Positions 18,829 through 19,295 of a stretch of 64,000 nt of DNA are shown piece by piece. How positions within the stretch are numbered: position 1 is the first letter of the stretch; every line of letters begins with the position of its first letter. The stretch spans positions 1,515,757 to 1,579,756 of the forward strand of contig OY969414.1 in assembly GCA_963699155.1 (NCBI GenBank), written 5' to 3'. The position numbers were made by a program, and so were the translations under genes. The DNA comes from an uncultured Chlamydiales bacterium (GTDB lineage: Bacteria; Chlamydiota; Chlamydiia; Chlamydiales; JAAKFR01). Below the pieces are notes generated by a model. The model did not search any database. It saw only the letters and a program-made list of their open reading frames with translations, and was not told the origin of the DNA.

Positions 18829-19012
18829 ATGTCACTTCACACTATGCCAAATAAACAGGTAGACAATGAACTATCTGGCCAAATTATTGGAGCGGCATCA
18901 AGCGCAGTTGCTTACCTATTTACGTCTTACTGGGATACAGCTTGGATTGCTGATTAATTTTGGGAAGAGAGATGTAAAAGATGGGATTTTTCGTTTAATC
19001 AACAATGGCTAA
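18829..19012 (+). pseudogene. GxxExxY-family (PD-(D/E)XK-like) protein remnant, core deleted
   Basis: N-terminal NELSGQIIGAA joined out of frame at ~18896 to C-terminal HQAQLLTYLRLTGIQLGLLINFG. Confidence 0.8.
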
Positions 19013-19044
19013 GTACTGAGTGTGGCATAGTTGTGAGGGTATCT

Positions 19045-19295
19045 TCAACACAGAGACGCAGAGACTCAGAGGCTCACAGAGAAAATCGCCTCTTTGAGCA
19101 AAGCTCAAAGCACCAGAAGGGAAAAGCCATTAAAGAAAAAGGGGTCTTCAATACGACTGTCATGATCACCCCTTTTTCTTTAATGGCTTTTCTCTTCTGG
19201 TGTTTTTGGTGCATGCACCAAAAAAAGGCGATTTTTTTGCCTTCGAGCATGGGTCCCTCTCTGTGAGCCTCTGTGTCTCTGCGTCTCTGTGTTGA
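19045..19295. repeat. Nested inverted-repeat element (four-way junction)
   Basis: 38-bp outer arms (1 mismatch), 10-bp stem, two side hairpins and a 35-bp inner stem (1 mismatch). Confidence 0.9.

Follow-up and report, generated by a model that had tools for sequence, protein, structure and literature searches.

A branched four-way palindrome beside a GxxExxY gene remnant in a Chlamydiales genome and its probable relation to nuclease-bearing word-array hairpins

A four-way palindrome next to a decayed GxxExxY gene

The stretch analyzed here (the window) comprises 64,000 nucleotides of contig OY969414.1 from an uncultured Chlamydiales bacterium (GCA_963699155.1), whose genome consists of one contig of 2,399,326 bases. 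Downstream of the sucB-lpdA operon the window contains a four-way palindrome of about 250 bp (19045-19295), which is preceded by the remnant of a gene of the GxxExxY family (PF13366). The locus is flanked by lpdA on one side and by leucine-rich-repeat genes on the other, and the region downstream of lpdA is different in all three same-genus genomes that were compared. A previous inspection of this DNA from its letters alone, which we call the sequence-only reading, had described a GxxExxY gene with a deleted core followed after 32 bp by the palindrome, and both statements hold. The stop codon of the remnant ends at 19012 and the palindrome arm begins at 19045, leaving a gap of 32 nt. For a 154-bp piece at a random position, the expected frequency of a palindrome of this kind within 50 nt is 0.6%.

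The open reading frame (ORF) at 18866-19012 matches PF13366 with 40 bits (cut-off 22, E 5.7e-10) and TIGR04256 with 40.5 bits (cut-off 35), in each case with the last third of the family, as only positions 79-116 of the 117 positions of the PF13366 profile are covered. Using the intact paralogue of the same genome as a tblastn query, residues 1-13 were placed at 18859-18897 (9/13 identical) and residues 88-124 at 18896-19006 in another frame (25/37 identical, 68%). Both pieces are on the plus strand, and the C-terminal one extends with residue 125 and the stop codon to 19012. No counterpart of paralogue residues 14-87 is present in the window, so that the whole catalytic core is gone. The gap holds the invariant residues G22, G24, E27, Y30, D67 and E77 as well as the near-invariant K79, and neither the GxxExxY motif nor the D...E-x-K catalytic residues are present. 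Because all of these positions are missing, we regard the gene as a dead remnant. A short inverted repeat may surround it, with a left arm TCACACTATGCCA at 18836-18849 and a right arm TGGCATAGTTGTGA at 19023-19036, the latter inside the repeat core shared with other copies of the palindrome (see below). The two arms agree in 13/14 nt with one indel and have a 9-nt perfect core, which is weak evidence and stays below the threshold of the bracket test described below.

The outer arms of the palindrome are arrays of 8-nt words (NNNCAGAG). In detail, the A/G-rich arm at 19045-19082 reads ACACAGAG ACGCAGAG ACTCAGAG GCTCACAG and was detected by inverted-repeat search and as a period-8 array by Tandem Repeats Finder, and the C/T-rich arm at 19258-19295 is its reverse complement (38 nt, 97% complementary). 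Inside the arms, a basal stem AAAATCGCC... at 19082-19095 pairs with 19222-19235 (14 nt, 93% complementary) and carries three hairpins. These are a left side hairpin TTTGAGCAAAGCTCAAA seen in the fold (19093-19109), a long central hairpin (19107-19206; stem 19107-19150 / 19163-19206, 44 nt, 91% complementary) and a right side hairpin TTTTTGGTGCATGCACCAAAAA (19203-19224; 19203-19213 / 19214-19224, 11 nt perfect). The arms, stem, side hairpins and inner stem listed in the sequence-only reading were all recovered in place by inverted-repeat search and folding, and its inner stem of 35 bp is included in the 44-nt central stem.

The single-strand fold of 19040-19300 is a four-way junction with -172.7 kcal/mol, compared with -70.5 +/- 4.8 kcal/mol for 200 dinucleotide shuffles (z = -21), of which none is as stable (0/200). 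A related branched palindrome in the same-genus genome G001 has the same arms, has likewise kept the basal stem AAAATCGCC and carries the same small hairpin, together with an unrelated central hairpin. An assembly artefact behind the palindrome is unlikely, because the same structure is found at six places with different flanks in a one-contig genome.

The GxxExxY protein

The intact paralogue is predicted to adopt a PD-(D/E)XK fold with a mean predicted local distance difference test score (pLDDT) of 94, and the model confirms this fold for the GxxExxY protein. The family alignment shows no variation at G, G, E, Y, D and E, and at least 90% of the sequences have the K. A sequence search of the PDB gave no match for the intact paralogue, and a Foldseek search against the PDB returned weak matches, all of them PD-(D/E)XK enzymes including lambda exonuclease. 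None of the solved relatives allows a specific activity to be assigned to the protein. The entry for GxxExxY (PF13366) in a superfamily survey of 2012 lists the function as unknown and notes multiple transfers (PMC3424549), and a passage of another article mentions the domain in passing (PMC8934634). The literature searched, subscription journals excepted, contained no link of the GxxExxY family to palindromes.

GxxExxY genes between inverted repeats

To describe the surroundings of GxxExxY genes we used a bracket test, which takes the best inverted repeat between the 350 nt left and the 350 nt right of a locus. Six of the seven PF13366 loci of this genome are bracketed at E ≤ 1.7e-9, the window locus being the exception, and only 1/400 random 350-bp genome segments reached E ≤ 1e-5. 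The clearest arrangement is seen at an intact gene of 125 aa (genome 2249367-2249741), which occupies exactly the position that the 28-nt loop has in about 20 gene-less octamer-word hairpins: 23 nt separate the left arm from the ATG, and the right arm follows directly after the stop codon. A PF13366 fragment at genome 1712075 lies between CACAGAG-type arrays. The second intact gene (138 aa, at genome 1919521) is found between 79-nt G+C-rich inverted repeats, and three further loci, which have two internal deletions of the 138-aa gene type in common, likewise lie between 79-nt repeats of this kind.

The elements of the 138-aa gene type are located at genome 1919200-1920130, 2185440-2185960, 1513620-1514210 and 2351860-2352470. 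Their 79-nt repeats are themselves made of sub-palindromes and a terminator-like hairpin follows the gene. The left boundary of their common sequence, GAGTAAGTAGTGG, resembles the GTAAGT ends of a 392-bp unit that is described below.

Word-array hairpins across the genome

A whole-genome tandem-repeat scan revealed many period-8 arrays (ACGCAAAG or ACGCAGAG, 3-4 units) followed by the reverse complement. Period-8 arrays number 51 on one strand and 53 on the other, compared with 0-2 in five shuffles, and the array pairs have a clear polarity with the A/G arm first in 41 cases and the C/T arm first in 2. About 20 of these are simple hairpins with a length of about 95 bp, which all have the termini ATTCAACGC...GCGTTGAAT and one common 28-nt loop in either orientation. 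The arm type of the intact 125-aa gene occurs at 23 places, 22 of which are gene-less, and the arm type of the window palindrome occurs at 8 places, none with an intact gene. The simple octamer hairpins show no direct target duplication (ends could be anchored in 19 of the 25 examined), and in some of them the palindrome continues into the flanks.

One simple octamer-word hairpin with the arm type of the intact GxxExxY gene is present in the window itself at 38349-38438 (ATTCAACGCAAAGACGCCAAGACGCTAAGACACAAAG ... CTTCGCGTCTCTGCGTCTTCGCGTCTTTACGTTGAA). Tandem arrays of octamer-word hairpins and their arms are also present, with repeat lengths of about 151, 125, 50 and 40 bp, at genome 849380-849780, 2337160-2338130, 520340-520760 and 2249745-2249890. 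Chance adjacency of palindrome and GxxExxY gene was considered as an explanation and dropped after the tandem-repeat scan of the genome and the inspection of the seven loci.

Relatives and other phyla

PF13366 is present in 19 of the 41 genomes searched, our own genome counted. Within the order, 10/16 full-length loci with both flanks are bracketed at E ≤ 1e-5; the 16 loci include two of this genome and two from one other genome. The arms in six other genomes of the order are word arrays of CACAGAG, CGCAAAG or CACAAAG, and CGCAGAG is also among the words.

To extend the comparison across phyla, a species-level genome collection was searched with a 5-sequence alignment that represents one protein subfamily only. 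This search yielded 80 loci in Chlamydiota, Chloroflexota, Acidobacteriota, Planctomycetota, Verrucomicrobiota, several proteobacterial classes, Bacteroidota, a cyanobacterium and two archaea. At E ≤ 1e-5, 37/75 testable loci are bracketed in comparison to 1/137 shifted controls in the same loci, and the count is 32/70 once six copies of one larger repeat are collapsed. In these loci ACCACAGAG, CGCAGAG, CGCCGAG or CACGGAG words make up the arm arrays, the best-scoring period is mostly 8-11 nt, and the word core conserved across phyla is C-A/G-A/G-A-G.

Genome G035, which belongs to the same order and has a size of 1.9 Mb, has 67 PF13366 matches, of which about 14 are full length and the rest are near-identical C-terminal pieces. 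All of the 11 examined C-terminal pieces (11/11) consist of an arm, the 3' third of the gene and an arm. The upstream flank of two full cassettes in G035 (L059 and L066), translated by eye, resembles the C-terminus of an IS5-like transposase. In a Waddliaceae genome, six identical GxxExxY cassettes (L069-L074) are embedded in a larger repeat, which continues for at least 130-160 nt outside both arms; these cassettes travel as passengers of a bigger element.

Dispersed copies of the palindrome and a 392-bp unit

A search of the genome with a 281-nt query identified six full copies of the palindrome (84-100% identity) and three partial ones. Of the partial copies, one (genome 2062608) lacks the left and central hairpins and keeps the right side hairpin alone, one (genome 1636264) lacks the central and right hairpins and keeps the left side hairpin alone, and one is rearranged. 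A 334-bp repeat core is common to the six full copies; in the window it covers 19006-19337 on the plus strand and has 87% identity to the copy at genome 1154371 (query positions 30-363). The other five full copies form a unit of 392-396 bp with 29-nt terminal inverted repeats starting with GTAAGT. The window copy corresponds to positions 30-363 of this 392-bp unit and both 29-nt terminal inverted repeats are missing. A 22-nt terminal-repeat query gave 16 matches in the genome at ≤5 mismatches, including all retained ends of full-length copies, and these matches are the copies' own ends plus three solo ends.

Two of the five 392-bp units are flanked by target duplications of 8/8 and one by 6/8, and the values are 4/8 and 2/8 at the two units adjoining an insertion sequence. 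The copies are found in both orientations relative to neighbour genes, and the central loop has one orientation in the window copy and one further copy and the opposite one in the other four. Among the six copies, four have 96-97% identity to each other; compared with these four, the window copy has about 90% and the sixth copy about 87% identity. A tree of the six copies is compatible with the window copy as ancestral or as derived.

Searches with the terminal repeats and with 12-mer pairs revealed no transposase-bearing element with the ends of the unit in this genome. PF03050 (IS66-type transposase) is absent from the genome, and the terminal-repeat pattern had 0 matches in one genome each of 185,579 species. 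A 391-bp candidate for a parent element at genome 518820 turned out to be ordinary coding sequence. The repeat was not found in 38 of the 40 other genomes searched, and the remaining two, both of the same genus, contain short arm matches only. A metagenome scan with a 19-nt pattern of the arm/stem junction gave 56 matching stretches, none with a partner stem (0/56), and we attribute these matches to chance.

An insertion sequence of 1,258 bp is also part of the window, with a full copy at 22483-23740 and a partial copy at 31981-32736. Genome-wide it has 11 full copies and 1 partial copy with more than 99% identity, mostly with 15-bp target duplications, in front of which TTAAG or ATTAA is found. 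HTH_32 and HTH_28 domains are encoded by its ORF, which reads out through the element end. Three of the 11 full copies are located 13-15 bp outside a terminal repeat of the 392-bp unit, which is far above chance. Furthermore, a 150-bp element at genome 1073665-1073815 has the same GTGAGTAATCA... terminal repeat and an interior made up of a C/T arm, a 10-nt spacer and an A/G arm, an arm order that would be expected at the junction of two hairpin elements or of a circle.

DNA or RNA as the level of action

Across the six full copies, 96% of cells pair. Six pairs are changed on both sides, compared with 1.6 in column shuffles (0/500 reach 6) and 1-2 with partners slid. As the two-sided changes exceed the shuffles, the complementarity of the arms is maintained, either by selection or by a copying mechanism. 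Together with the identity of 96-97% among four copies, this fits the earlier suggestion of selection on the structure or recent mobility.

The same reading had offered a structured non-coding RNA (ncRNA) as partner of the gene, and the data lend no support to it. The palindrome gave 14 matches at E ≤ 1 in Rfam 15, none at the gathering threshold (best 47 bits vs 150), and all are generic hairpin matches. A promoter and terminator scan found no site in 19040-19300. In 46 distinct gene-bearing cassettes the arm mismatches are G.U-compatible in the sense strand in 31 cases and in the antisense strand in 36 cases (p = 0.63), and these counts give no sign of selection for a sense-strand RNA stem.

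Movement and decay

The most direct view on the history of a cassette comes from the spacer between mutS and uvrC, whose identities were confirmed by Pfam, in four genomes of the genus. In G001 and G003 this spacer is empty (17-30 nt), in the genome studied here it contains an intact GxxExxY cassette, and in the closest relative G002 it contains the left arm and the first ~40 codons of the gene. The empty, filled and decayed states of one spacer show that a whole cassette entered a tiny housekeeping spacer and decayed in one lineage. Non-coding derivatives multiply as well, as is evident from the three identical-deletion copies in this genome, the many truncated copies in G035 and the ~20 hairpins with one common loop.

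Because the simple hairpins lack direct target duplications and thus differ from the 392-bp unit with its 8-bp duplications, we read this unit as a second, transposon-like shell that acquired the palindrome. The window copy may be an old resident that once partnered the dead gene and gave rise to the 392-bp core, or a resident palindrome that was gene-converted from the other copies.

Interpretation of the window locus

Taken together, the arrangement points to a nuclease-and-hairpin selfish element. In our opinion the window palindrome is probably a gene-less, branched member of a word-array class whose complete form carries a GxxExxY gene in the loop, and its neighbour is a decayed copy of the nuclease gene. 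Where the intact cassette has the gene, the branched palindrome has three hairpins. The nuclease may recognize the word arrays in one of two forms, as iterons in duplex DNA or extruded as a hairpin or cruciform, and may cut there; host repair or recombination would then copy the element as in homing. The lack of direct target duplications at the simple hairpins would follow from copying of this kind, and the gene-less copies would depend on nuclease supplied in trans. For the subfamily of the window palindrome (8 places) no intact cognate gene is left in the genome, and five of its copies probably spread by another route, inside the 392-bp unit with GTAAGT... ends.

On a wider scale, GxxExxY proteins could be the enzymes that move or maintain word-array palindromes across many phyla, as a PD-(D/E)XK counterpart of the repetitive extragenic palindromic (REP) sequences and their REP-associated tyrosine transposases (RAYT). 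Branched variants would offer a ready four-way junction, and the window would show late stages of a life cycle in which the gene dies, the palindrome outlives it and is respread in a second shell. We propose this wider scenario tentatively, as a serious possibility that we would not yet call probable. The nuclease-plus-palindrome system suggested by the sequence-only reading has to be judged at two levels. It is supported for the family (6/7 loci bracketed vs 1/400, 10/16 within the order and 37/75 vs 1/137 across phyla) and it is not supported in this form for the window locus, where the gene lies outside the palindrome and the five other full copies are without GxxExxY.

Several observations weigh against the reading of the window palindrome given above. 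The remnant in the window is located outside the arms, beside a complete palindrome, and the bracket test finds nothing there. Its closest paralogue has CGCAAAG-type arms and the adjacent palindrome has CAGAG-type arms; because of this difference, the dead gene and the palindrome are possibly non-cognate. No PF13366 match was found near the other copies of the palindrome, neither the five full nor the partial ones. Of the 16 full-length loci of the order, four show no bracket of any kind and two others show word arrays that can be seen but score below the threshold, and about half of the cross-phylum GxxExxY loci are without a bracket at the threshold. In addition, a gene and arms that simply travel together would yield the same association without the nuclease ever touching the arms. 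The 392-bp unit with its 8-bp duplications suggests a staggered cut of the transposase type, and a small PD-(D/E)XK nuclease would not readily be expected to make one. Finally, the structural matches of the protein are weak (at best Cas4 SSO0001 with E 1.2e-3 and TM-score 0.52; the Holliday-junction resolvase Hjc has TM 0.47), and the literature searched, again except subscription journals, reports no activity of a GxxExxY protein on DNA.

Alternative explanations

Three other explanations have to be considered. The 392-bp unit could be an ordinary miniature inverted-repeat transposable element (MITE) that was moved by a DDE transposase, with the palindromic interior as passenger and the GxxExxY remnant as unrelated neighbour. 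The 29-nt terminal inverted repeats of five copies, the duplications of 8/8 at two and 6/8 at one of them, the lack of coding capacity and the identity of 96-97% among four copies, which suggests a recent burst, are all in line with this. GTAA ends with 8-bp duplications are reminiscent of the IS66 family; PF03050 is absent from the genome, no transposase-bearing element with these ends is present there, and the terminal-repeat pattern has no match in the collection with one genome per species. Furthermore, the window copy is devoid of both terminal repeats, its arms consist of the kind of words found around GxxExxY genes in many genomes, and an adjacency by chance would be expected at about 0.6% per locus. 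We therefore consider a MITE unlikely as an explanation for the whole locus; it can hold for the 392-bp shell without explaining the palindrome inside.

An action at the RNA level appears more doubtful still. The palindrome could form a long double-stranded RNA stem as in 23S intervening sequences and be a substrate of RNase III, act as terminator or stabiliser after the sucB-lpdA operon, or be a structured ncRNA. Its single-strand fold is indeed extremely stable, a T-run (19236-19242) follows the basal stem and cassettes are located in tiny operon spacers. The ribosome-binding site of the intact cassette is inside the arms, so that the mRNA of the cassette would carry both arms. Against this stand the missing gathering score in Rfam, the lack of promoter or terminator sites in 19040-19300 and the absence of a sense-strand bias in the arm mismatches of the 46 cassettes, and also the copies in both orientations and the central loop that is flipped among copies. 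It is also conceivable that the word arrays are binding sites of a host protein with a role in chromosome organisation or regulation and that GxxExxY genes merely land there. The word core C-A/G-A/G-A-G that is conserved across phyla, the polarity of 41 vs 2 and the maintained arm complementarity would agree with such sites, but cassettes and hairpins decay freely, the occupancy of orthologous sites differs among species of one genus, the repeat was not found in 38/40 other genomes, copy numbers differ greatly and no candidate host protein was identified. We consider this explanation very improbable. The gene-less relative of a nuclease cassette therefore remains our preferred reading of the palindrome, and both the movement mechanism and the part of the nuclease in it are inferred only.

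Significance

Members of the large orphan family PF13366/TIGR04256 are known from bacteria, archaea and viruses, and the link to inverted word arrays gives this family a testable substrate. If correct, it would add a second nuclease-plus-hairpin selfish system beside REP/RAYT. Cassettes and gene-less hairpins are found in very short spacers of housekeeping gene pairs and operons, and the long perfect palindromes that they create affect assembly, annotation and possibly transcription; annotators should not call them regulatory RNAs. The window locus is a decayed and atypical example, which nevertheless led to the intact cassette, to 22 cognate hairpins and to a site that is filled in one genome and empty in others.

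Comparison with known systems

Bacterial MITEs are non-autonomous derivatives of insertion sequences, for example Correia or ERIC-type elements. The elements described here share with them the small size, the absence of coding sequence, the dispersal and a largely palindromic structure. Terminal inverted repeats are present in the 392-bp unit, two copies of which have perfect 8-bp duplications, and internally deleted derivatives outnumber full copies. They differ in that no parent insertion sequence with the same ends was found in the genome or in the genome collection, in that the window copy has no terminal repeats, and in that the repeat class of the interior is associated with a nuclease gene and not with a transposase.

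A small ORF in the loop of a long stem is also known from ORF-bearing intervening sequences of 23S rRNA, which encode an S23p / four-helix-bundle protein. Both are compact insertions into transcribed DNA with a small ORF in a long inverted-repeat loop. In contrast to the intervening sequences, the cassettes are not in rRNA, their ORF belongs to PF13366 and there is no strand bias of an RNA stem; PF05635 is absent from this genome. Homing endonuclease genes are similar in that a free-standing small nuclease gene is present at an orthologous site in some genomes of a genus and then decays. GxxExxY genes, however, are not located in an intron or intein, have their own inverted word arrays and are accompanied by abundant gene-less derivatives.

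There is also a resemblance in organization to REP sequences and REP doublets forming hairpins (REPINs) with their RAYT (TnpA-REP), the "REPtrons", in which a single small nuclease-type gene lies between inverted repeat copies that are also dispersed gene-less. Such flanking by a repeat that is dispersed without the gene is found at the gene at genome 2249367 and not at the window locus. As for REPs, gene-less copies outnumber the gene, with 22 to 1 for the arm type of the intact gene, and the simple octamer hairpins have no direct target duplication. A Y1/RAYT gene (PF01797) above the cut-off was not found in the whole genome, where the one match reaches 17.8 bits vs 23. REPs are described as palindromes of 20-40 nt with a GTAG or CGTC head (PMC3733652), whereas the arms described here are 33-38-nt arrays of 8-nt words. 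As gene-less copies of the arms exist and no RAYT gene is present, the REP/RAYT analogy seems apt, with the difference that the GxxExxY enzyme has a predicted PD-(D/E)XK fold in place of an HUH/Y1 transposase.

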